In this document: in pieces, positions 50,368 to 61,019 of the stretch
Position numbering within the stretch: the stretch's first letter is position 1
How the letters are laid out: each line of letters starts with the position of its first letter
Assembly: GCA_965232515.1 (NCBI GenBank)
Contig: CBDDPY010000002.1
Location: 3,136,001-3,200,000 of the forward strand
DNA: 64,000 nucleotides
Reading direction: 5' to 3'
Origin: Alphaproteobacteria bacterium
GTDB lineage: Bacteria; Pseudomonadota; Alphaproteobacteria; GCA-2731375
Notes under the pieces: generated by a model
Seen by the model: only the letters and a program-made list of their open reading frames with translations
What the model was told of the DNA's origin: nothing
The model's database searches: none
Program-made: the position numbers and the translations under genes

Positions 50368-52131
50368 ATGCAGGCTGTCTCAACACGCGCAGAGAACAAT
50401 CCGATCAAGGAAGCGCTTACGCACTGCCGGACGGCGCTGCCCGCACTGATCCTTTTCAGTTGTTTGATCAATATTCTGATTCTGGCGTCGCCGATCTACA
50501 TGATGCAGGTCTTCGACCGGGTGCTGTCGAGCGGCCGGACAGAGACGCTGTTGTATCTGACGTTGATCGCCGGCGTTGCGGTGCTGGTGATGGGTGCGAT
50601 CCATATGGCGCGCAGTCAGATCCTGGCACGCATCGCGCGTTGGCTGGGACGCCGGCTGGCGCCGGATTTGATTGCGTCGTGCACGCGGGCGGCGCTCAAC
50701 GGCTTTTCGGCCGGCGCCCAGCCGCTGCGCGACCTCTCGACGATCCGCGGCTTCGTCTCAGGCTCGGGCATCAACGCCGTGTTCGACGCGCCCTGGGTGC
50801 CGTTGTTCGTCGCCGTGATCTGGCTGCTGCATCCCTGGCTCGGCATGGTCGCGCTCGGCGCCGCCGTCATGATCTTCGTCGTGGCGCTGCTGAACGAATA
50901 CCTGTCGCGCAAGCCGCTACGCGCATCGAACGTCGTGTCGCTGAGCGGTTATCGGGACGCCGACGCCGCCGTGCGCAACGCCGATGTCTTTCAGGCCATG
51001 GGCATGCTGCCGAACTTCCTCGCCAGCTGGACCCGGCGACAGGACGAGGGTCTGGACCAGCAATTGAAGGCCGGCGACCGCAGCGCCGCGCTGCTCGGCT
51101 TTTCACGCTTCTTCCGGGTGTTCGCCCAGGTCGCGATCCTGGGCGTCGGCGCCTATCTGGTATTGGAGTCCCAGTTGAGCTCCGGCGGCATGATCGCCGC
51201 GTCGATCCTCCTGGGCAGGGCGCTGGCGCCGGTCGAGCAGGCCATGGGCGCCTGGAAGGGCCTGGTCGCGGCGCGCGACGCGCATGGCCGCCTGAAGCGA
51301 CTGTTCGAACAGGCCCCGGTGACAGAAACCGCCATGGCGCTGCCGGCGCCGGAAGGGCGGCTGGCTTGTGAGCAGGTAATGTGGGTGCCGAACGGGCGCG
51401 AGGAACCGGTGCTGAACGGCGTCAGCTTCGCGCTCGAGCCGGGCGAGGCCTTGGGCATGATCGGCCCGTCGGCGGCGGGCAAGTCGTCGCTCTGCCGCAT
51501 GCTGGTCGGCACGGCAGCGCCGACGCGCGGCCATGTGCGGCTGGACGGCGCCGATCTGTTCGCCTGGCCGGCCGACGATCTGGGCCCGGCTATCGGCTAC
51601 CTGCCGCAGGACGTTGAGCTGTTCAGCGGCACGGTGAAGGCGAACATCGCCCGGCTCTGGGCCGACGCCGAGCCGGCCGAGATCGTCGCGGCCGCGAAGC
51701 TCGCCGGTGTGCATGACATGATCCTGCGGCTGTCGGACGGCTACGACACCGAGATCGGCGACGACGGCTCGCTGCTGTCGGGCGGTCAGCGTCAGCGAAT
51801 CGGCCTCGCCCGGGCGCTGTTCGGCCGGCCGAAGTTGATCGTGCTGGACGAACCCAACGCCAATCTGGACCAGGACGGCGAGCTCGCCCTGATGACGGCC
51901 ATCGAGGCCGCCAAGGGCTGGGGCGCGACTATCGTGCTGGTCGCCCACCATCCGCGCATTCTGGGTCAGATGGATAAGCTGATGGTGCTGCGCGACGGCC
52001 AGGTCGCCGTCTTCGGGCCGCGCGACGACATCCTGGCGCAGATCATGCCGCGACCGAAGACGGTCGCCACCACGCAACGGTCGGCGACGCCGGTCGGCGA
52101 GAATGCCGCCGTGCAGGCTGGGAGGACATGA
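50368..52131 (+). CDS. Type I secretion system permease/ATPase (PrtD-like)
   Basis: YMMQVFDRV, FDAPW, GPSAAGKS, GYLPQDVELF, LSGGQRQR, LDEPNANLD. Confidence 0.93.
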   Translation: MQAVSTRAENNPIKEALTHCRTALPALILFSCLINILILASPIYMMQVFDRVLSSGRTETLLYLTLIAGVAVLVMGAIHMARSQILARIARWLGRRLAPDLIASCTRAALNGFSAGAQPLRDLSTIRGFVSGSGINAVFDAPWVPLFVAVIWLLHPWLGMVALGAAVMIFVVALLNEYLSRKPLRASNVVSLSGYRDADAAVRNADVFQAMGMLPNFLASWTRRQDEGLDQQLKAGDRSAALLGFSRFFRVFAQVAILGVGAYLVLESQLSSGGMIAASILLGRALAPVEQAMGAWKGLVAARDAHGRLKRLFEQAPVTETAMALPAPEGRLACEQVMWVPNGREEPVLNGVSFALEPGEALGMIGPSAAGKSSLCRMLVGTAAPTRGHVRLDGADLFAWPADDLGPAIGYLPQDVELFSGTVKANIARLWADAEPAEIVAAAKLAGVHDMILRLSDGYDTEIGDDGSLLSGGQRQRIGLARALFGRPKLIVLDEPNANLDQDGELALMTAIEAAKGWGATIVLVAHHPRILGQMDKLMVLRDGQVAVFGPRDDILAQIMPRPKTVATTQRSATPVGENAAVQAGRT

Positions 52132-53501
52132 TGAGCAAGCAGAAGAACCCGATGCCCGAGGCCGCCAACGATCACGTCAAGTCGGCCAGCGCCATCGGCA
52201 CGCCGGGCCCGCTTCGCAAGGAACTGCGTTCCGTCACTTGGTTCGGCATTCTCGCCGGCGCGCTATTCTTCGCCATCGGCGGCGGCTGGGCGGCGACGGC
52301 GCAATTGTCTGCGGCCGCGATCGCCGCCGGTATCGTCAGTCCGGAAGGCCGGCGCCAGACCGTGCAGCACCTGGAAGGCGGCATCATCCGCGAGATCCGC
52401 GTCGCCGAAGGCGACAAGGTGGCCGAGGGCGACGTCCTGATGGTGCTGGGCGACGTCAGCGCCCGGGCCGAGGTGGGCGCGTTCATGACCCGACTGCGCA
52501 CGCTGGCGGCGACCGAAGCCCGACTGAGGGCGGAGGCCGAGGGCCGCGAGGACGTCGCCTTTACGCATGACACGCTCGCGGATCGGGACGATTCCGACGT
52601 GCGCGCCGTGATTACGCAGCAAAGCAGCCTGTTCGCGACCCGACGGGACAATTTCGACAGCCAGCAGTCGATCCTCGGCCAGCGCCTGGCGCAGCTCGAG
52701 CAGCAGATCGGCGGCATCAAGAAGCAGTTGCGCGGCACCCGCCGGCAGAACGAGCTGATCGGCGAAGAGATCGAGACCGTGGCCGAGCTGATGGCGAAGG
52801 GTCATGCCCGCAAGCCGCGGCTGCTGGCGCTGAAGCGCGCCGAGGCCTCGCTGCAAGGCCAGGAAGGCGAGCTGCAGGCGGCGCTGGCCCGCACGCGCGA
52901 GGCCATCGGCGAAACCGAGTTGCGGCGGGCGACATTGAAGCTGCAACGCATGGAGGACGTCGCCGAAAACCTGGCGCTGGTTCAGGAGCAGCGCATCGAG
53001 GTCGAGAAGCAGATCACGGCGAGCCTCGACCGCCTGAAGCGCACCGAGATCCTGGCACCCGTCGCCGGTACCGTGCACAAGCTGGCGTTCCACAGCGTCG
53101 GTGGCGTGATCCGCACCGGCCAGCCGATCCTCGATATCGTCCCCGCCGAGGACGACCTGATCATCGAGGCCCGCGTCTCGCCGACCGACATCGACGACGT
53201 GCATGCCGGCCTGTCGGCTTACGTCACCTTCCCGTCCTACGCCCAGCGCCACATGCTGCGCATCGCCGGCGAGGTGACGCACGTCTCGGCCGACGCGCTG
53301 GAGGACGAGCGGTCGGGCGAATACTTCTTCCTGGCCAAGATCAAAGTCGACCGCGACCACCTGCAGACGGCCGCGCCGGAGATCGAACTGACGCCCGGTC
53401 TGCCGGCCGAGTCCTATATCGCCACCGGCGACCGGACCATGCTGGAATATTTGGGCCAGCCGTTCATGCAGTCGCTGGAGCGCGCGTTTCGGGAACACTG
53501 A
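52128..53501 (+). CDS. HlyD-family type I secretion membrane fusion protein (PrtE-like)
   Basis: Single TM, VQHLEGGII, long coiled coil, APVAG, LTPGLPAE, RTMLEYL. Confidence 0.93.
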   Translation: MMSKQKNPMPEAANDHVKSASAIGTPGPLRKELRSVTWFGILAGALFFAIGGGWAATAQLSAAAIAAGIVSPEGRRQTVQHLEGGIIREIRVAEGDKVAEGDVLMVLGDVSARAEVGAFMTRLRTLAATEARLRAEAEGREDVAFTHDTLADRDDSDVRAVITQQSSLFATRRDNFDSQQSILGQRLAQLEQQIGGIKKQLRGTRRQNELIGEEIETVAELMAKGHARKPRLLALKRAEASLQGQEGELQAALARTREAIGETELRRATLKLQRMEDVAENLALVQEQRIEVEKQITASLDRLKRTEILAPVAGTVHKLAFHSVGGVIRTGQPILDIVPAEDDLIIEARVSPTDIDDVHAGLSAYVTFPSYAQRHMLRIAGEVTHVSADALEDERSGEYFFLAKIKVDRDHLQTAAPEIELTPGLPAESYIATGDRTMLEYLGQPFMQSLERAFREH

Positions 53502-55516: not shown

Positions 55517-56989
55517 ATGAACATCCGTCTGATCACCGCAACCGCGCTGGCGTTGCTGGGGCTGGCGGCCCTGGCCCAGGGCGGGACCGATCCGGCCGCC
55601 GGCATCGAGCCAGTGCGCGAAAGCGACTTCTACGACAACGGCCCGAACGCGAAGGCCAAGGTCGCGCTCGGCCGCATGCTGTTCTTCGACAAGATCCTGA
55701 GCGGCAACAAGAACATTTCCTGCGCCACGTGCCACCATCCGAACCTCGGCACGGCCGACGGCGTGGCGCTCTCCTTCGGCGAAGGCGCCACGGGGCTGGG
55801 CAAGGACCGCCACGTCACGGCGGCGACGCCGGTGCTGGGCCGCGTGCCGCGCAACGCGCAGGCGCTCTATTTCCTGGGCGCCATGGAATACACCAGCCTG
55901 TTCCACGACGGCCGCGTCGAGCGCGACGCCAACAACAACTGGCCGAGCGGCTTCTGGTCGCCCGCGCGCGAGCAGCTGCCGGCGGGCCTCGACAATGTGC
56001 TGGCCGTGCAGGCCATGTTCCCGGTGGTTTCCGATATCGAGATGGCCGGCCATAAGGGCGAGAACCCGATCGCCACGGCCTCGGCGCTCGACGAACTGGA
56101 CGGCCCCGACGGTCTCTGGGCGCTGCTGGCGCGGCGGCTGCAGGCGATCCCGGAATATGTCGAGATGTTCATGGCGGCCTATCCGGACCAGGTGAAAACC
56201 GCCAACGACGTCACCTTCGTACACGCGGCGAACGCGATCGCGGCGTTCGAGAACGCCGCCTTCCGGCCCGACCATAGTCCGTTCGACCGCTATCTGCGGA
56301 CGCGAAACGCCAACCTGCTGAGCCGGCCGGCACGGCGGGGCATGGAACTGTTCTACGGCGAGGCCGGTTGCGGCGACTGCCACAGCGGCAAGTTCCAGAC
56401 CGACCAGCAGTTCCACGCCGTCGCCATGCCGCAGATCGGACCCGGCAAGAACGACGGTTTCGACCGCTCCTATTGGCGGGCGACGGGCTTCATGGGCCGA
56501 CTGGAAGATGCCGGCCGCTACCGGGTGACGTTTCGGCCGGAAGACAAGTACCGTTTCCGCACGCCGTCCCTGCGCAATGTCGAGCTGACCGGCCCGTGGG
56601 GCCATGCCGGGACCTATGACAGCCTGGAAGACGTGGTGCGGCACCATCTGGACCCGGCGTCGGCGCTCGCCGCTTATGACGCGCGCCAGGCCCGTTTGCC
56701 GGAACTCGCGCATGTCGTCGAGCGGACAGCCATCGGTTCGCAACTGCTCTACCGGCCGGTCAATCCGGCGCGGCTCGACGACTATCTGCGCCGCGACAAT
56801 TGGGTGCAGCAGACGCCGGTCCTGCGCCAGGCCATCGCACGGGCGAACGAGCTGCCGCCACGCCGGCTGAACGACGCCCAGGTCGACGACATCGTCGCCT
56901 TCCTGAAGGCGCTGACAGATCCCCGTAGTCGCGACCGCAGCGACCTGGTGCCCGAGCGGGTACCGAGCGGTCTGCCGGTCGCGGATTGA
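55517..56989 (+). CDS. Di-heme cytochrome c peroxidase/MauG superfamily protein
   Basis: Signal peptide, LGRMLFFD..LSG..NISCATCH, CGDCH, FRTPSLRNV..TGPWGHAG, AFLKALTD. Confidence 0.9.
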   Translation: MNIRLITATALALLGLAALAQGGTDPAAGIEPVRESDFYDNGPNAKAKVALGRMLFFDKILSGNKNISCATCHHPNLGTADGVALSFGEGATGLGKDRHVTAATPVLGRVPRNAQALYFLGAMEYTSLFHDGRVERDANNNWPSGFWSPAREQLPAGLDNVLAVQAMFPVVSDIEMAGHKGENPIATASALDELDGPDGLWALLARRLQAIPEYVEMFMAAYPDQVKTANDVTFVHAANAIAAFENAAFRPDHSPFDRYLRTRNANLLSRPARRGMELFYGEAGCGDCHSGKFQTDQQFHAVAMPQIGPGKNDGFDRSYWRATGFMGRLEDAGRYRVTFRPEDKYRFRTPSLRNVELTGPWGHAGTYDSLEDVVRHHLDPASALAAYDARQARLPELAHVVERTAIGSQLLYRPVNPARLDDYLRRDNWVQQTPVLRQAIARANELPPRRLNDAQVDDIVAFLKALTDPRSRDRSDLVPERVPSGLPVAD

Positions 56990-57023
56990 CACGACGTTTG
57001 ATCAGGAGAAGGAGGAACGTCTG

Positions 57024-57800
57024 ATGACAACGAAACGAACATTGCTGATCGCGGCCGCGACCTCGGCCCTCGGCTTTGCGCTGGTCGGTTATGCGCTGGC
57101 GAACGCCGGCGGCATCGCCGCCACGGCCGGCGGCGCGACAGCCGCGGCGGCGGCCGCCAAGACCTATGACGCGCCGGTCAGCATCGATCTGAGCTTTCTG
57201 TTCCATATCGACGAGGAACTGCCGGAGCAGGACGTCTTCGTCGAGCGCGTGCCGGGCTCGGGCCTGGTCTACCGGCCGACGGCGGCGACCCGGGACATGA
57301 ACCTGCCGCTCTACGCCACGGCCGAGCCGGTCGAGCACACGCCGTTCGAGCCGGACAATCTGGGTCCGTGGAAGAAGGGCAAGGCGCTGGGCGTGACGCT
57401 GGGTCAGTGGTTCGCCGCCAAGGGCAAGGGCAAATACACCTGCACCAATGGTCAAGGCCATCTGCGCGTCGACTTCACCGACCTGGTGCCGAACGGGACC
57501 TACACCATGTGGCACGACTTCTTCGCCTGGCCGCCGACCGAGCCATTCACCGGTACCTACGATCTGCCGCTGGGCGCGCGCGACGGTTCGGAGTCGGTGT
57601 TCAAGACCGACGCCAAGGGCCATGCCGTTGTCGAACGCAGCTTCAAACCGTGCCTGCAACTGACGGGCGAGCATCTGATGGCGGAACTGGCCATCGCCTG
57701 GCACAGCGACGGCAAAACCTACGGCCACCTGCCCGGGCCGTTCGCCTCGAACACGCACGTGCATATGTATACCGGTCTGCCGAAGCGCGCCGGTATCTGA
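57024..57800 (+). CDS. Hypothetical secreted protein (His/Trp-rich), partner of the di-heme enzyme
   Basis: Signal peptide, AAGGAGG RBS, 34 bp downstream of the di-heme gene; YTMWH, AWHSDG, HVH motifs; two Cys. Confidence 0.85.
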   Translation: MTTKRTLLIAAATSALGFALVGYALANAGGIAATAGGATAAAAAAKTYDAPVSIDLSFLFHIDEELPEQDVFVERVPGSGLVYRPTAATRDMNLPLYATAEPVEHTPFEPDNLGPWKKGKALGVTLGQWFAAKGKGKYTCTNGQGHLRVDFTDLVPNGTYTMWHDFFAWPPTEPFTGTYDLPLGARDGSESVFKTDAKGHAVVERSFKPCLQLTGEHLMAELAIAWHSDGKTYGHLPGPFASNTHVHMYTGLPKRAGI

Positions 57801-57823
57801 GGTCAATTGTTCGCTTTTAACGC

Positions 57824-58546
57824 TTAACCGGTATCGGCCGGGCCGCGTTCGCGCGGCTCGGCCGTCGGCCGTTCGCCGGCCACTTCCAGGAGCAGCTTCT
57901 TCAGGATCGCCGCCTCGAAGTCGTCGAAGTCGTCGGCCTCGATGACGAAGCCGTTCGACGTGCGCACGTTCTGACGGTAGAAGTCGCCGACATCGGGATC
58001 GTATTTCAGGATCGCCAGCGCGTTGATGGTGATGCCGAGCTGCTCGGCCAGCGCCACCGCCTGCTTCGGTCCCGGCCCGTCATTGTTCTCGCCGTCGCCC
58101 GACACGTCGATCACCTGCCGGTGCGCGGGGATGCCGCTGGTCTCGAGCAGGTTCATGGCGAAATCGAGCGCGGCGCCGACCGCCGTAAGCCCGGTCAGGC
58201 GCGTTTTCGCCGATCCTTCCAGCCGCCGCGCCGCAGCTTCTGCATCGCGCGCGTTCAGCAGCCGGGTCCAGGGCAGGATCACGGTCTGCTTCTTCGACGC
58301 GGAAAACAGGAACGCGGTGACGGCGATGCCGCCCGGCTGATTCTCCAGCCAATCGACGAAGCGGTCGGATGTCAGCGCCCGGCGGATGCCCCGCATCTGC
58401 AGCTCGTAGTCCGGTTGCTTGATGCTGCTGGAATCGTCGATCGCCAGGACCAGGCTGATCGAGACCGTGTCTTCCGCCCGCGCCGGGCCGACGGCCAGGC
58501 ACAGCAGCAGAAACGCGAACCGCAACAGCGAGCGACATCTAATCAT
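57824..58546 (-). CDS. DUF1194 (VWA-like) secreted protein
   Basis: LVLAIDDSSSI (MIDAS DxSxS), RQVIDVSGDG, GITINALAI, KKLLLEVA. Confidence 0.85.
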   Translation of the reverse strand: MIRCRSLLRFAFLLLCLAVGPARAEDTVSISLVLAIDDSSSIKQPDYELQMRGIRRALTSDRFVDWLENQPGGIAVTAFLFSASKKQTVILPWTRLLNARDAEAAARRLEGSAKTRLTGLTAVGAALDFAMNLLETSGIPAHRQVIDVSGDGENNDGPGPKQAVALAEQLGITINALAILKYDPDVGDFYRQNVRTSNGFVIEADDFDDFEAAILKKLLLEVAGERPTAEPRERGPADTG

Positions 58547-58651
58547 GCGACGTGCCTTTCGAATCGGCCGCCTCGCGCGAGACGGTACCCCGCAACGCAT
58601 CGGCACGGTAGAGTCCAATTCATTAACGATATCTCAACGGGGAGGGAAACG

Positions 58652-59170
58652 TTGACGCGACAACAGACTGCGTGGCCTGAAAGGGACGCCGCCGGACGGC
58701 GTTCAAGTTGGGGGTTGGCAGGCCTGTTGATCATTTTTCACAGCGTGCTGGCGGCAGCGCCGTCAGACGCGAACGACCGGGGCAAGGCGGTTTACAAGAA
58801 GGCGAACTGCGTCGGCTGCCATAAATGGCACGGCGCGGGCGGCGGCGGATATGGCGGCGCCGCGCTGTCCTTGCGCGAAATGGAACTGACGCGCGAGCAG
58901 TTTCTAGAAGTGGTGCGCTGCGGCCGGCCGGCGACGCGCATGCCGTACCACGACCGACGCGCCTGGAAGAAACAGATGCCGTGCTTCGAGATGACCCGGC
59001 AGGAGATCGGCAGCGACGCACCGCCGAAGGCCGCGAAGCTGCTGCGGCCGGAAGAGATCGAGGCCGTCGCCGACTATGTCTACGCGGCTGTCGTGGGCAA
59101 AGGCGATCCGACGAAGGCCGAGTGCGTGGCCTTTTGGGGTGAAGACGCCCGCGAGTGCAAACGCTTCTGA
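58652..59170 (+). CDS. Monoheme c-type cytochrome
   Basis: TTG start after GGAGG, signal-like segment, CVGCH, RMP distal Met, extra Cys pairs. Confidence 0.85.
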   Translation: MTRQQTAWPERDAAGRRSSWGLAGLLIIFHSVLAAAPSDANDRGKAVYKKANCVGCHKWHGAGGGGYGGAALSLREMELTREQFLEVVRCGRPATRMPYHDRRAWKKQMPCFEMTRQEIGSDAPPKAAKLLRPEEIEAVADYVYAAVVGKGDPTKAECVAFWGEDARECKRF

Positions 59171-59196
59171 CGGCGACCGCCACGGTGCGTGAACCG

Positions 59197-59233
59197 AAAA
59201 AGAAAAGGCGGGCCTTTCGGCCCGCCCTTTTTT
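59197..59233. terminator. Bidirectional intrinsic terminator
   Basis: A-tract, ggcgggcc-tttc-ggcccgcc, T-tract between convergent genes. Confidence 0.85.
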
Positions 59234-59240
59234 CAGGTGA

Positions 59241-61019
59241 TTACAGGGAGAACACGAACAGCATGGAGCTCGGCTCCATCTTCTCGAGTCCCTTGGTGCT
59301 GTCGACGAACCATTTCGGCCAGGCGCCGCCCAGACCGACCAGGATCGCGACGTACTGCTTGCCGTTGATGCTGTAGGTCATCGGCGGCGCGTTGACACCG
59401 GCATTGGTCTCGAAGCGCCAGAGCTCGGTGAGGTTCTCGGCGTCGAGCGCCAGGATCTCGCCCGAGGGATGCGCGGTGAACACGAGGCCGCCGGCTGTCG
59501 CCAGCGTGCCGCCCAGCATCGGATACTTGGTGCGGTACTTGGCCTTGACGTCGCCGGTGTTGACGTCGATGGCGGCGATGCTGCCGTAGATCGGCTCATG
59601 CTGCCGCGGCCCGCCGCCGGTGAAGAATTCCCGCGGCTTGTAGGACTCGCCGGGGATCATCTCTTCGTTGGTCATCTCGTTACAGCTCTCGATGACCGGG
59701 ATGTAGTAGAGATTGAGCTCCGGGTTGTAGGACGTCGGCGGCCAGTTCTTGCCGCCCATGTTGCCGGGGCAGGACACGCCGACCTTGTTCGAGCGGCTGG
59801 GCGCGGTGCCCGGCGCGTAGCTCTGGATCTTCGAGTCCGGGTCGTAGTTCACCGGAATGCCCGTCTTCGGATCGAGCGATGGCGTCCAGGTGATGCGGTC
59901 GACGAACGGCTTGCCCCAGAGGAACTCGCCGGTGGCGCGGTCGAGCGCATAGGCAAAGCCGTTGCGATCGGCATGCAGCACGACCTTGCGCTGCTGGCCA
60001 TTGACCATGGCGTCGGCAAACACCTGCTCGTTCACGCCGTCATAGTCGTAGGGGTCGTTCGGCGTGTACTGGAAGTGCCACTTCAGCTCGCCGGTATCGG
60101 CGTCGAGCGCGACGGCACTGTTGGTGTAGAGGTTGTCGCCGGGCCGGTATTCGGCGTCCCAATCCGGTCCCGGATTGCCGACGCCCCAGATGATCAGATC
60201 GGTGTCGGGATCGTAGGAGCCGGTGACCCAGGTCGAGCCGCCGCCGTTCTTCCAGGCGTCGTGCGTGGTCGGCCAGGTGTCGTGACCGGGCTCGCCGGGT
60301 CCCGGAATGGTATGAAAGCGCCACTTCTCCTCGCCGTTGTTGAGGTCGGTGGCGGCGATCCAGCCGCGGATGCCGTATTCGGCGCCGGCCGTGCCGGTGA
60401 TCGCCATGTCCTTCACGATCAGCGGCGCGCCGGTGATGGTCTCGGCGATTTCCGGGTTGGCGACCTTGCGCTCCCAGTCGACCTCGCCGGTGGCCTTGTC
60501 GGTCATAATCAGCCGGCCGTCGAGCGTGTGGCTCAACACCTTGTCGCGCCACAGGCCGACGCCGCGGTTGTTGACGCCGCAACAGGCGACGTTGCCGGCC
60601 CAGTCCTTGTCGGTGTCTGGATCCATTTTCCAGACCAGCCGGCCGATGCCGTTGCGAATGTCGAGCTTGTAGACCGAGCCCCAGCCGTCGGTGACGTACA
60701 TGAAGCCGTCCTCGACGATGGGCGTGCCCTCGAGGCCGCCGTGCGGCCAGATGCCGCCGCCCTCGATGCCGCCCATGGCGTATGTCCAGGCGAGCCTCAG
60801 CTCGCCGACGGTCTCGCGGTTGATCTCGTCCAACGTGGAATAACGCTGCGACGCGAAGCTGCCGTGGTGGGTGAGCCAGTTCTGCGGTTCTTTCGCCGCG
60901 TCGAGCAGGCGTTGCATCGTGGTATCGCCATCGGCCGAGGCCGGCGCGGCGAGCGCGCAAAGCAGGAACGTTGCGGAAGCGCCCAGCACGGCACGCTTCC
61001 AACCTTTGTTGGCATACAT
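59241..61019 (-). CDS. PQQ-dependent alcohol dehydrogenase (methanol/ethanol family) with lanthanide-type D-x-D motif
   Basis: Signal peptide, ACCG.NNRG vicinal disulfide, GAEYG, GGSTW, GNPGP, PYDYDGVNE, DRNGF, GGKNW. Confidence 0.92.
   Translation of the reverse strand: MYANKGWKRAVLGASATFLLCALAAPASADGDTTMQRLLDAAKEPQNWLTHHGSFASQRYSTLDEINRETVGELRLAWTYAMGGIEGGGIWPHGGLEGTPIVEDGFMYVTDGWGSVYKLDIRNGIGRLVWKMDPDTDKDWAGNVACCGVNNRGVGLWRDKVLSHTLDGRLIMTDKATGEVDWERKVANPEIAETITGAPLIVKDMAITGTAGAEYGIRGWIAATDLNNGEEKWRFHTIPGPGEPGHDTWPTTHDAWKNGGGSTWVTGSYDPDTDLIIWGVGNPGPDWDAEYRPGDNLYTNSAVALDADTGELKWHFQYTPNDPYDYDGVNEQVFADAMVNGQQRKVVLHADRNGFAYALDRATGEFLWGKPFVDRITWTPSLDPKTGIPVNYDPDSKIQSYAPGTAPSRSNKVGVSCPGNMGGKNWPPTSYNPELNLYYIPVIESCNEMTNEEMIPGESYKPREFFTGGGPRQHEPIYGSIAAIDVNTGDVKAKYRTKYPMLGGTLATAGGLVFTAHPSGEILALDAENLTELWRFETNAGVNAPPMTYSINGKQYVAILVGLGGAWPKWFVDSTKGLEKMEPSSMLFVFSL

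Follow-up and report, generated by a model that had tools for sequence, protein, structure and literature searches.

A rare, co-inherited gene pair that looks like a new periplasmic redox module: an unusual di-heme CCP/MauG-superfamily enzyme and a secreted beta-sandwich partner

When a gene for a periplasmic di-heme enzyme is followed at once by a gene for a secreted protein that belongs to no named family, are the two a dedicated pair and, if so, what might one do to the other? The question is raised by two genes in the window analysed here, a 64,000-nucleotide stretch (positions 3,136,001 to 3,200,000 of contig CBDDPY010000002.1, assembly GCA_965232515.1) from an Alphaproteobacteria bacterium. 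A preliminary description of the locus had proposed a dedicated enzyme and partner in the manner of MauG and MbnH, in which high-valent hemes oxidise the partner to generate a protein-derived cofactor or metal site. Both open reading frames (ORFs), the gap between them and the secreted partner were found as that description had them:

55517..56989, + strand: gene for a secreted di-heme CCP/MauG-superfamily protein (ORF of 490 aa)
56990..57023, + strand: spacer of 34 nt between the two genes, with a ribosome-binding stretch and no terminator
57024..57800, + strand: gene for the secreted partner (ORF of 258 aa), without a match in Pfam or NCBIfam and with a beta-barrel model like that of superoxide dismutase (SOD)

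The two genes are co-oriented, with exactly 34 nt from TGA to ATG, and the N-termini of both proteins, judged by eye from their sequences, look like Sec signal peptides (basic, hydrophobic, with an AxA-type leader). A strong ribosome-binding stretch (AGGAGAAGGAGG) lies inside the spacer, which holds no terminator-like hairpin; scanning for promoters gave no sigma-70-like site. One RNA-seq library (run X2) contains a single 2,250-nt contig, ∼95% alike, that spans positions 55581-57830 (both genes plus the spacer) and stops 30 nt past the partner stop codon, with the flanks on other contigs. This expression evidence, which consists of assembled contigs of a relative, is compatible with a bicistronic transcript but no proof of one. 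No raw read of run X14 fell on the stretch, which says nothing either way.

To establish how far the two genes travel together, one genome per species was scanned with an alignment of 26 partner homologues (A1). The scan yielded 76 loci, from Alphaproteobacteria, Polyangia, Krumholzibacteriota, Thermoanaerobaculia, Phycisphaerales and others. A di-heme homologue (54-74% identical by tblastn) adjoined the partner in 70 of the 76, lying upstream in 64 and downstream in 6 (L061, L066, L067, L070, L071 and L072, from Krumholzibacteriota, Thermoanaerobaculia, Phycisphaerales and other non-proteobacterial metagenome-assembled genomes [MAGs]). Among the six unlinked loci, L076 is just 847 nt long and too short to judge, L075 carries a partner pseudogene with stops, and L032, L052, L069 and L073 have a partner with no di-heme in the flank. 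The five other neighbours of the pair in the window recurred in none of the 76 loci. A metagenome scan from the opposite side, with an alignment of 27 di-hemes (A2), gave 80 loci, six of which had the partner. This low share arises because most of the di-hemes so sampled fall in a partnerless clade, as seen in a tree of 147 di-hemes (all trees were built with FastTree only). Clade A (66 rows; Shimodaira-Hasegawa-like support of 97) has the order di-heme then partner, with the partner in 65 rows and one row not judgeable; clade B (11 rows; support of 99) has the order partner then di-heme, with the partner in nine rows and two not judgeable. In clade C (70 rows; support of 99) the partner was absent in all 28 rows with at least 1 kb on both sides, the other 42 not being judgeable. 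Metagenomes contributed nine rows to clades A and B, three of them without sequence on the relevant side, so that six of six judgeable rows were linked.

Clade C is sister to the partner-linked clades A and B, and linkage on the di-heme tree amounts to one change of state; in the partner tree (81 rows), unlinking occurred four times independently. Pairwise distances of di-heme and partner were strongly correlated (r = 0.841, 66 pairs; maximum over 500 shuffles of 0.15). The pair is thus a real, co-inherited two-gene module, and it is also rare: in a sample of 401 genomes from the phylum, just the genome of the window had the partner, one weak match aside. Clustering of all ORFs from the 76 loci and the 80 metagenome loci revealed no third gene conserved across lineages, and a conserved third module gene was rejected on this ground, the neighbours beyond the pair being limited to particular lineages. 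Chance, or mere syntenic adjacency of unrelated genes, would fit the existence of members of each family without the other, but it is effectively refuted by linkage in 70/76 loci over several phyla, by the single state change on the tree and by the congruence of the two trees; linkage also survives inversion of gene order while all other neighbours vary. Because of this linkage, its survival through inversion and the co-divergence, direct functional coupling of di-heme and partner is very likely. The claim of a dedicated pair thus holds on both sides of the sampling, in two gene orders.

Dedication within these clades does not extend to the whole of either family. The genome of the window has three partner genes and one di-heme of this family. 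Its other two partners are tandem paralogues (G000:C2:5381548-5383227; L081 8504..10231) of the WH type with the Cys pair kept; they follow an Rv2258c-like winged helix-turn-helix SAM methyltransferase and a divergent Cupin_6/AraC regulator, and their surroundings contain no di-heme. The same methyltransferase family also adjoins the pair in other lineages (L003, L042, L056 and L007). Five genomes with a partner lacking an adjacent di-heme were searched with the di-heme profile, some of them MAGs, in which absence is unproven. Three (G349, G350 and G354) gave no di-heme match at E ≤ 1e-10, and G353 combined an intact WH-type partner with only generic CCP matches (≤102 bits). In the fifth, the Ruegeria genome G355, the partner is a pseudogene with in-frame stops (L075 4788..5192) and two family di-hemes lie elsewhere in the genome. 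In the phylum sample, the TIGR03981-like di-hemes of family f8 were present in 10/19 genomes and the partner in 0/19 genome-wide. Each protein can evidently work without the other, which argues against an obligate maturase-substrate relation for the whole families, though not for the linked subclades.

What kind of enzyme is the di-heme protein? It is a member of the CCP/MauG superfamily (121 bits against PF03150, CCP_MauG; cut-off 25.6) without a fitting named family. Its score against the nearest NCBIfam model, TIGR03981, was 247.1 bits (cut-off 340), and it fell further short of TIGR04039 (MbnH; 159.8 bits, cut-off 362.85) and TIGR03791 (MauG equivalog; 110.4 bits, cut-off 443.85). Nine more members of clades A to C scored 236 to 271 bits on TIGR03981, all below the cut-off, against 541 bits for a true member; an assignment of clade C to TIGR03981 was rejected on these scores. 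The AlphaFold2 (AF2) model (pLDDT 81.5, pTM 0.84) matched bCcPs, MbnH and MauG about equally in Foldseek. The four motifs named in the preliminary description (CATCH at residue 69, LFHDGR at 128, CGDCH at 285 and PWGH at 360) are all present, and the conserved heme environment reads as follows:

55721..55735, + strand: heme motif 1, C69-A-T-C-H73, of the peroxidatic heme (C69, C72 and H73 invariant in 27 homologues)
55898..55915, + strand: LFHDGR from residue 128, counterpart of FWDGR, with His130 (MAFFT alignment; H130 at least 90% conserved)
56009..56044, + strand: distal pocket Q165-A-M-F-P169...E175-M176 (Q165, P169, E175 and M176 invariant in 27 sequences)
56369..56383, + strand: heme motif 2, C285-G-D-C-H289, of the E heme (motif and conservation in the 27-sequence alignment)
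56594..56605, + strand: PWGH from residue 360, counterpart of the PY(F/M)H "MauG motif" (P360, G362 and H363 invariant)
56639..56647, + strand: R375-H376-H377 (H376 and H377 invariant; H377 at the ligand column of Tyr in MauG-like sequences and Met in bCcPs)

The MauG-like comparison set consisted of seven genome sequences with 257-380 bits on TIGR03791, which is below threshold, and served only for locating the Tyr and Trp columns; no true MauG (TIGR03791 above cut-off) was found in 301 genomes of the class. In the MAFFT L-INS-i alignment, FFWDGRA stands opposite LFHDGRV, which replaces the inter-heme Trp by His130 and is followed by an insertion of ∼25 aa, and PYMHDGS stands opposite PWGHAGT. 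The long insertions reported earlier were recovered, five of them relative to the MauG-like sequences. The earlier reading of a Trp-to-His exchange in FWDGR is probable rather than certain, since the MAFFT alignment supports it but a weak local HMMER alignment (5.6 bits) pairs the bCcP WDGR with P155-x-G-L. That reading had missed a second exchange, within the invariant H376-H377: DHY of the seven MauG-like sequences stands opposite RHH, which puts His377 in the Tyr column, and the Met ligand of MacA aligns at the same residue. The E heme is His/Met in canonical bCcPs and His/Tyr in the MauG type (PMC11892367). Because His377 aligns with both of these ligands, the E heme of the di-heme protein is predicted to be His/His, neither bCcP-type nor MauG-type; by alignment, the protein has neither the inter-heme Trp (FWDGR) and His/Met E heme of a canonical bCcP nor the His/Tyr E heme of a MauG-type one.

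The first heme appears more conventional. In alignments, its distal pocket residues fall on EQAxGP...EM, both in MauG-like sequences and in MacA, and we take the Gln, Pro and Glu to have the roles of their counterparts in MauG. This conserved peroxide pocket says that the first heme should react with H2O2, or possibly O2. A peroxide-activating role of the pocket Glu is stated in PMC6405878, and the same source shows what exchanges at the other two positions can do in BthA. A natural Ser in place of the inter-heme Trp still lets bis-Fe(IV) form, and Y463H BthA, as Y294H MauG, loses the bis-Fe(IV) near-infrared band while retaining peroxidase turnover. The predicted His/His heme would therefore favour peroxidase-type electron flow rather than hole-hopping through a MauG-type bis-Fe(IV) state. 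BthA, from Burkholderia, resembles the present protein in being an atypical superfamily member without the inter-heme Trp and with a conserved secreted neighbour (a phosphatase whose relation to BthA is unclear according to PMC6405878). It differs in its His/Tyr E heme, in its bis-Fe(IV) and in the identity of that neighbour, and sequence similarity between the two is limited to the first heme motif.

The unusual heme motifs are not in themselves a mark of partner linkage. FHDGR occurs in 62/66 rows of clade A, 10/11 of clade B and 54/70 of clade C, and both FHDGR and HH are hence unspecific for it. Clade C itself (metagenome loci L101-L173; also L190-L200) is a large clade of stand-alone di-hemes that carry FHDGR (some FYDGR or FWDGR), P(W/Y)GH and HH; none of their neighbours within 3 kb is conserved. 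The clade is frequent in metagenomes from sea and sediment and also in one family of alphaproteobacteria, whose genomes contain up to three copies. Two insertions in the E-heme (second-heme) domain, on the other hand, are specific to the partner-linked clades:

56465..56497, + strand: insertion 1, R317-G327, 11 aa, in the partner-linked clades A and B only
56702..56770, + strand: insertion 2, E396-A418, 23 aa, in the partner-linked clades only, modelled as a beta-hairpin

Insertion 1 lengthens the distance from GPG to FRTP (median of 39 aa in clades A/B versus 28 aa in C), and insertion 2 that from HH to AFLxxLTD (82 versus 59 aa); in the AF2 model the strands of insertion 2 cover residues 400-406 and 409-414. 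The E-heme domain of bCcPs and MauG is where the protein donor or substrate docks. Because of this, and because the insertions track the partner, both are candidates for a docking surface for it.

The partner was at first characterised by its motifs, and these are present as described: YTMWH (residue 160), FAWPP (167), AWHSDG (225) and THVHM (244). It had also been called rich in His, Trp and Met, which suits the His (4.3%) and Trp (2.2%) content of the mature protein but not Met (1.7%). No family match was found in Pfam or NCBIfam, and across all 26 partner homologues Pfam returned only stray FixH and MORN matches up to E 5. Only "hypothetical protein" clusters came from the ESM Atlas, and nothing was returned when PDB sequences were searched with a profile of the partner homologues (best E of 0.33). 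Homologues numbered 442 at E ≤ 1e-3, and the 120 listed are all unnamed or "hypothetical"; a full-library profile search recovered 743 cluster representatives of the family, 124 of them at E ≤ 1e-30. The preliminary view that the partner has no MbnP WxW motif and does not resemble a TTQ (tryptophan tryptophylquinone) subunit is borne out, as WxW occurs in 0/26 homologues, no family model matches, and the protein is unrelated to subunits of methylamine dehydrogenase (MADH). MbnP, MopE and CorA were absent among the Foldseek and VIA matches listed for the partner model, and being unlisted does not exclude them. The conserved residues of the partner are these:

57204..57233, + strand: acidic/His stretch H61-I-D63...E68-Q69-D70, invariant in A1
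57441..57443, + strand, and 57651-57653: Cys140 and Cys210, the sole two invariant Cys of the subfamily (A1)
57501..57515, + strand: core motif Y160-T-M-W163-H164 (conservation over 75 representatives of the wider family)
57699..57710, + strand: core motif W226-H227-S228-D229 (conservation over the same 75)
57756..57758, + strand: His245, near-universal (73/75 in the wider family; invariant in A1)

Over 75 full-length representatives of the wider family, a core is nearly fixed (Y160 75/75, W129 74/75, W163 71/75, H227 71/75, D229 68/75 and S228 67/75; E68, Q69 and D70 each at least 87%), and H61 is found in 49/75. At position 164, 51 representatives have C, 10 have Y and 4 have H, close relatives having H, N or Y; at position 226, 69 have Y and 5 have W. 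The di-heme-linked subfamily is set apart by His164 (Asn in three near-identical linked MAGs), Trp226 and the invariant Cys140/Cys210 pair, each Cys occurring in only 19/75 of the wider family; it also has four invariant His and invariant Arg residues (A1). A Cys140-Cys210 disulfide is probable. The change from Cys to His at 164, beside two invariant His, suggests a metal site, and the Cys/His/His/Asp set conserved in the wider family may serve either to bind a metal or in catalysis. Architectures in the wider family include tandem duplications and fusions to OsmC (3), WD40/nSTAND/kinase (7), cupin, DUF1264 and PKD/Ig domains, and the fusion proteins keep the Y...WC...YHSD...H core. The WD40/nSTAND/protein-kinase fusions have no obvious signal peptide (among proteins P0121-P0269).

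The fold of the partner can be named with more ease than its family. The AF2 model (pLDDT 76.6, pTM 0.70) is a beta-sandwich with the Greek-key beta-barrel of Cu,Zn SOD (PF00080). The top 15 VIA matches are all Cu,Zn or Cu-only SOD, CCS domain 2 or SOD-like (Z of 10.7 to 7.5), headed by 6flh (Z 10.7, root mean square deviation 2.5, 108 aligned residues) and including 8aca (Z 9.4); unrelated Ig-like folds follow from Z 7.1. The top Foldseek matches are SODs as well (E from 5.7e-4), in weak agreement with VIA. These matches raise a different explanation of the pair, in which the two proteins need not bind: the partner would be a SOD-like or H2O2-producing metalloenzyme and the di-heme a peroxidase that removes its product. 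Such a reactive-oxygen couple would draw on the four invariant His, the Cys pair and the invariant Arg of the linked subfamily, the OsmC fusions of the wider family and the conserved peroxide pocket of the di-heme, and two self-sufficient activities would fit the finding of each protein without the other. The likeness to SOD ends at the fold, the secretion, the Cys pair and the several invariant His, and a common fold shows no function. Neither sequence nor profile similarity to SodC was found (hhalign probability of 0.1% when the partner profile was compared with 13 SodC sequences), the partner is about 90 residues longer, and the SOD ligand pattern cannot be mapped onto it; a proposal that FHID and AWHSDG mirror the SOD HVH and VHxxxDD stretches was dropped, as no alignment supports it. 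Position 164, moreover, is Cys in most of the wider family, a canonical SodC and a further CCP are already encoded in the window genome, and a couple of this kind would leave the clade-specific insertions of the E-heme domain unexplained. We consider it unlikely.

The coupling of the two genes, the peroxide pocket, the insertions that track the partner and the predicted His/His heme lead us to prefer a two-component peroxidase-like module, with a probability of roughly 0.3. The two proteins would be dedicated to each other as a redox pair of the periplasm, and the partner, which probably bears a metal, would be the subunit that is oxidised or handles the substrate. The first heme (CxxCH plus the Gln/Pro/Glu pocket) would bind and activate H2O2, the partner would dock on the E-heme domain via the two insertions found only in partner-linked di-hemes, and electrons given up by the partner would pass through the E heme to H2O2 at the first heme. 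This transfer would be a repeated one, from a redox center of the partner that is probably a His-bound metal and that may comprise the conserved Tyr, Trp, His and Asp residues Y160, W163, H164, W226, H227, D229, H245 and H61. The OsmC fusions, peroxiredoxin-like and present in three representatives of the wider family, speak for such a role.

Several points weigh against the two-component peroxidase. Position 164 is no fixed ligand, being N in three linked near-identical MAGs and mostly C in the wider family, and the partner metal is a guess given the lack of similarity to SOD (the hhalign probability of 0.1%) or to any other family. No copper- or other metal-handling genes recur near the pair among the loci scanned. 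A redox-cycling partner would need a reductant or substrate of its own, and none was identified. The correlation of insertions with partner depends on one phylogenetic event. The RNA contig is no proof of a single transcript, and RNA libraries can contain DNA. Finally, the characterised tight di-heme/partner pairs covered in PMC11951088, MauG-preMADH and MbnH-MbnP, are all maturation systems.

Could the pair, then, be a maturation system too? A MauG/MbnH-like maturase would use H2O2 once per partner molecule to oxidise a partner residue, with W163 beside H164 or W226 beside H227 as possible targets, and the product might be a protein-derived cofactor or metal site, e.g., a kynurenine-type ligand. 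The two precedents are a strong point (PMC11951088), and MopE/CorA and methanethiol oxidase have been proposed as further di-heme/partner cases (PMC11951088; PMC5739008). Tight adjacency, the two gene orders and co-divergence would be expected of an enzyme and its substrate; the invariant Trp and Tyr of the partner stand immediately next to invariant His, the single di-heme of the window genome could serve the three partner paralogues in trans, and BthA indicates that bis-Fe(IV) can form without the inter-heme Trp (PMC6405878). TIGR03981, the nearest named family (His-Xaa-Ser system-associated, MauG-like), is annotated within a peptide-modification system. In the one true member of TIGR03981 that was examined, PWGH, the HH pair (as SHH) and an insertion after the xWDGR motif recur as in the di-heme protein, but FWDGR is kept, and all three clades lie below the cut-off of the family. 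No radical-SAM His-Xaa-Ser genes were seen among the Pfam-scanned neighbours of the window and 24 other loci, a scan in which the specific NCBIfam models were not searched.

Comparison with the two precedents brings out where the chemistry may part. Like MauG and preMADH, the pair consists of a periplasmic PF03150-superfamily di-heme encoded with a secreted protein, and it shares the peroxide pocket and the fold (Foldseek E of about 5e-12, TMt of about 0.6). The di-heme differs from MauG in having His at the E-heme ligand column instead of Tyr and at the inter-heme position instead of Trp, its five insertions make it about 120 aa longer, and there are no mau genes nearby. With MbnH and MbnP it has in common the two-gene layout of a di-heme and a secreted Trp/His-rich partner, and MbnH (6e1c) ranks among the best matches of the di-heme in both sequence and fold. 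MbnH, however, forms bis-Fe(IV) (PMC11892367), where a His/His E heme is predicted here, and the conserved WxW motif of MbnP, which holds the Trp converted to kynurenine (PMC11951088), has no equivalent in the partner; the pair also has no copper-handling or TonB genes near it. His at the E-heme ligand column is a difficulty for a maturase, as Y294H MauG and Y463H BthA lose the bis-Fe(IV) near-infrared feature (PMC6405878). W163, H227 and H245 are equally conserved in the WD40/STAND or OsmC fusions and in genomes lacking the di-heme, so that their conservation is independent of the di-heme. An intact WH-type partner occurs without a family di-heme in G353, and clade C shares the heme motifs in the absence of a partner. 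One-off covalent maturation is therefore possible but somewhat less likely than repeated electron transfer: of the original proposal the dedicated pair stands, while its MauG/MbnH-type chemistry is weakened by His377, by the motifs in partnerless clade C and by the partners without a di-heme.

A substrate other than a protein is also conceivable, with the di-heme acting as an oxygenase or peroxygenase in the manner of RoxA and the partner as a substrate-binding or second catalytic protein. RoxA, as described in PMC6311187, is related to CCPs and has two hemes, the second of them His/His; it shows no peroxidase activity, its substrate is not a protein, and like the present enzyme it is enlarged by loop insertions. 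It differs in its size (about 70 kDa), in keeping the inter-heme Trp (W302) and in acting on polyisoprene with no dedicated protein partner, and it was absent among the listed sequence and fold matches of the di-heme. A small-molecule pathway would be in keeping with the clade C enzymes, which must have another substrate, and with the neighbours of the pair, which are often enzymes or regulators (an Rv2258c-like methyltransferase, a homocysteine S-methyltransferase-family protein, an FMO-like protein, a BBE-type flavin adenine dinucleotide [FAD] oxidase, AraC or SARP-like regulators); the two extra partner copies of the window genome follow an Rv2258c-like methyltransferase. Homocysteine S-methyltransferase-family genes were found at 30 loci, FMO-like flavoproteins at 29, GlxA/AraC regulators at 23 and Rv2258c-like SAM methyltransferases at 12. 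These recurrent families, however, sit mostly in the related Rhodobacterales and Stappiaceae and may reflect inherited synteny, nothing but the pair itself being conserved across lineages. The neighbours also have no signal peptides as read from their sequences, which would place them in another compartment. A pathway of this kind appears doubtful.

Mechanistic understanding of di-heme enzymes with a protein partner is confined to MauG and MbnH, both of which have a His/Tyr heme and form bis-Fe(IV), and the pair is thus a natural test of a His/His, Trp-less relative with a dedicated protein partner. No account of the pair or the partner family turned up in the literature searched, in which coverage of subscription journals was sparse, and none of a partner-bearing clade with a natural His/His E heme and a His-for-Trp exchange. 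We tentatively suggest that the pair could represent a third mechanistic class, in which a CCP-superfamily enzyme whose E heme is naturally His/His and whose inter-heme residue is His oxidises a SOD-fold partner via docking insertions. The outcome might be either a new Trp- or Tyr-derived cofactor or metal site made without bis-Fe(IV), or a two-protein peroxidase with a non-heme beta-sandwich as obligate electron-donating subunit. If the partner is modified or metal-loaded, this would be a new protein-derived cofactor or redox module in periplasmic biochemistry, mainly of marine Alphaproteobacteria; an ordinary peroxidase with an accessory protein would be of modest interest. For a sizeable domain family that Pfam does not model (the 743 cluster representatives with a Y-x-x-W-C/H...Y/W-H-S-D...H core), the pair also offers a first way into its function.

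Flanking the pair in the window are genes for a divergently oriented TetR regulator, an APH-family kinase, a DUF1194/vWA protein encoded on the opposite strand, a small cytochrome c and a pyrroloquinoline quinone (PQQ)-dependent alcohol dehydrogenase. The last three lie downstream (57824..61019) on mixed strands and are not conserved with the pair:

57824..58618, − strand: secreted DUF1194/vWA protein (family scan)
about 58700..59170, + strand: mono-heme cytochrome c (family scan)
59241..61019, − strand: PQQ-dependent methanol/ethanol-family dehydrogenase (TIGR03075, 558 bits)

Further upstream, at 50368..53501, the window holds what appears from ORF translations alone to be a type I secretion pair, an ATP-binding cassette transporter/ATPase of 587 aa and an HlyD-like adaptor of 457 aa. 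Elsewhere, flavoproteins adjoin the pair repeatedly and in unrelated forms. At L054 a BBE-type FAD oxidase lies directly before the di-heme, and many Rhodobacterales have an FMO-like gene in that place. In two clade B loci (L071 8195..9709 and L072 8321..9796) an ORF of ∼500 aa directly follows the di-heme, with a weak match to DAO (FAD-oxidoreductase) at L072.

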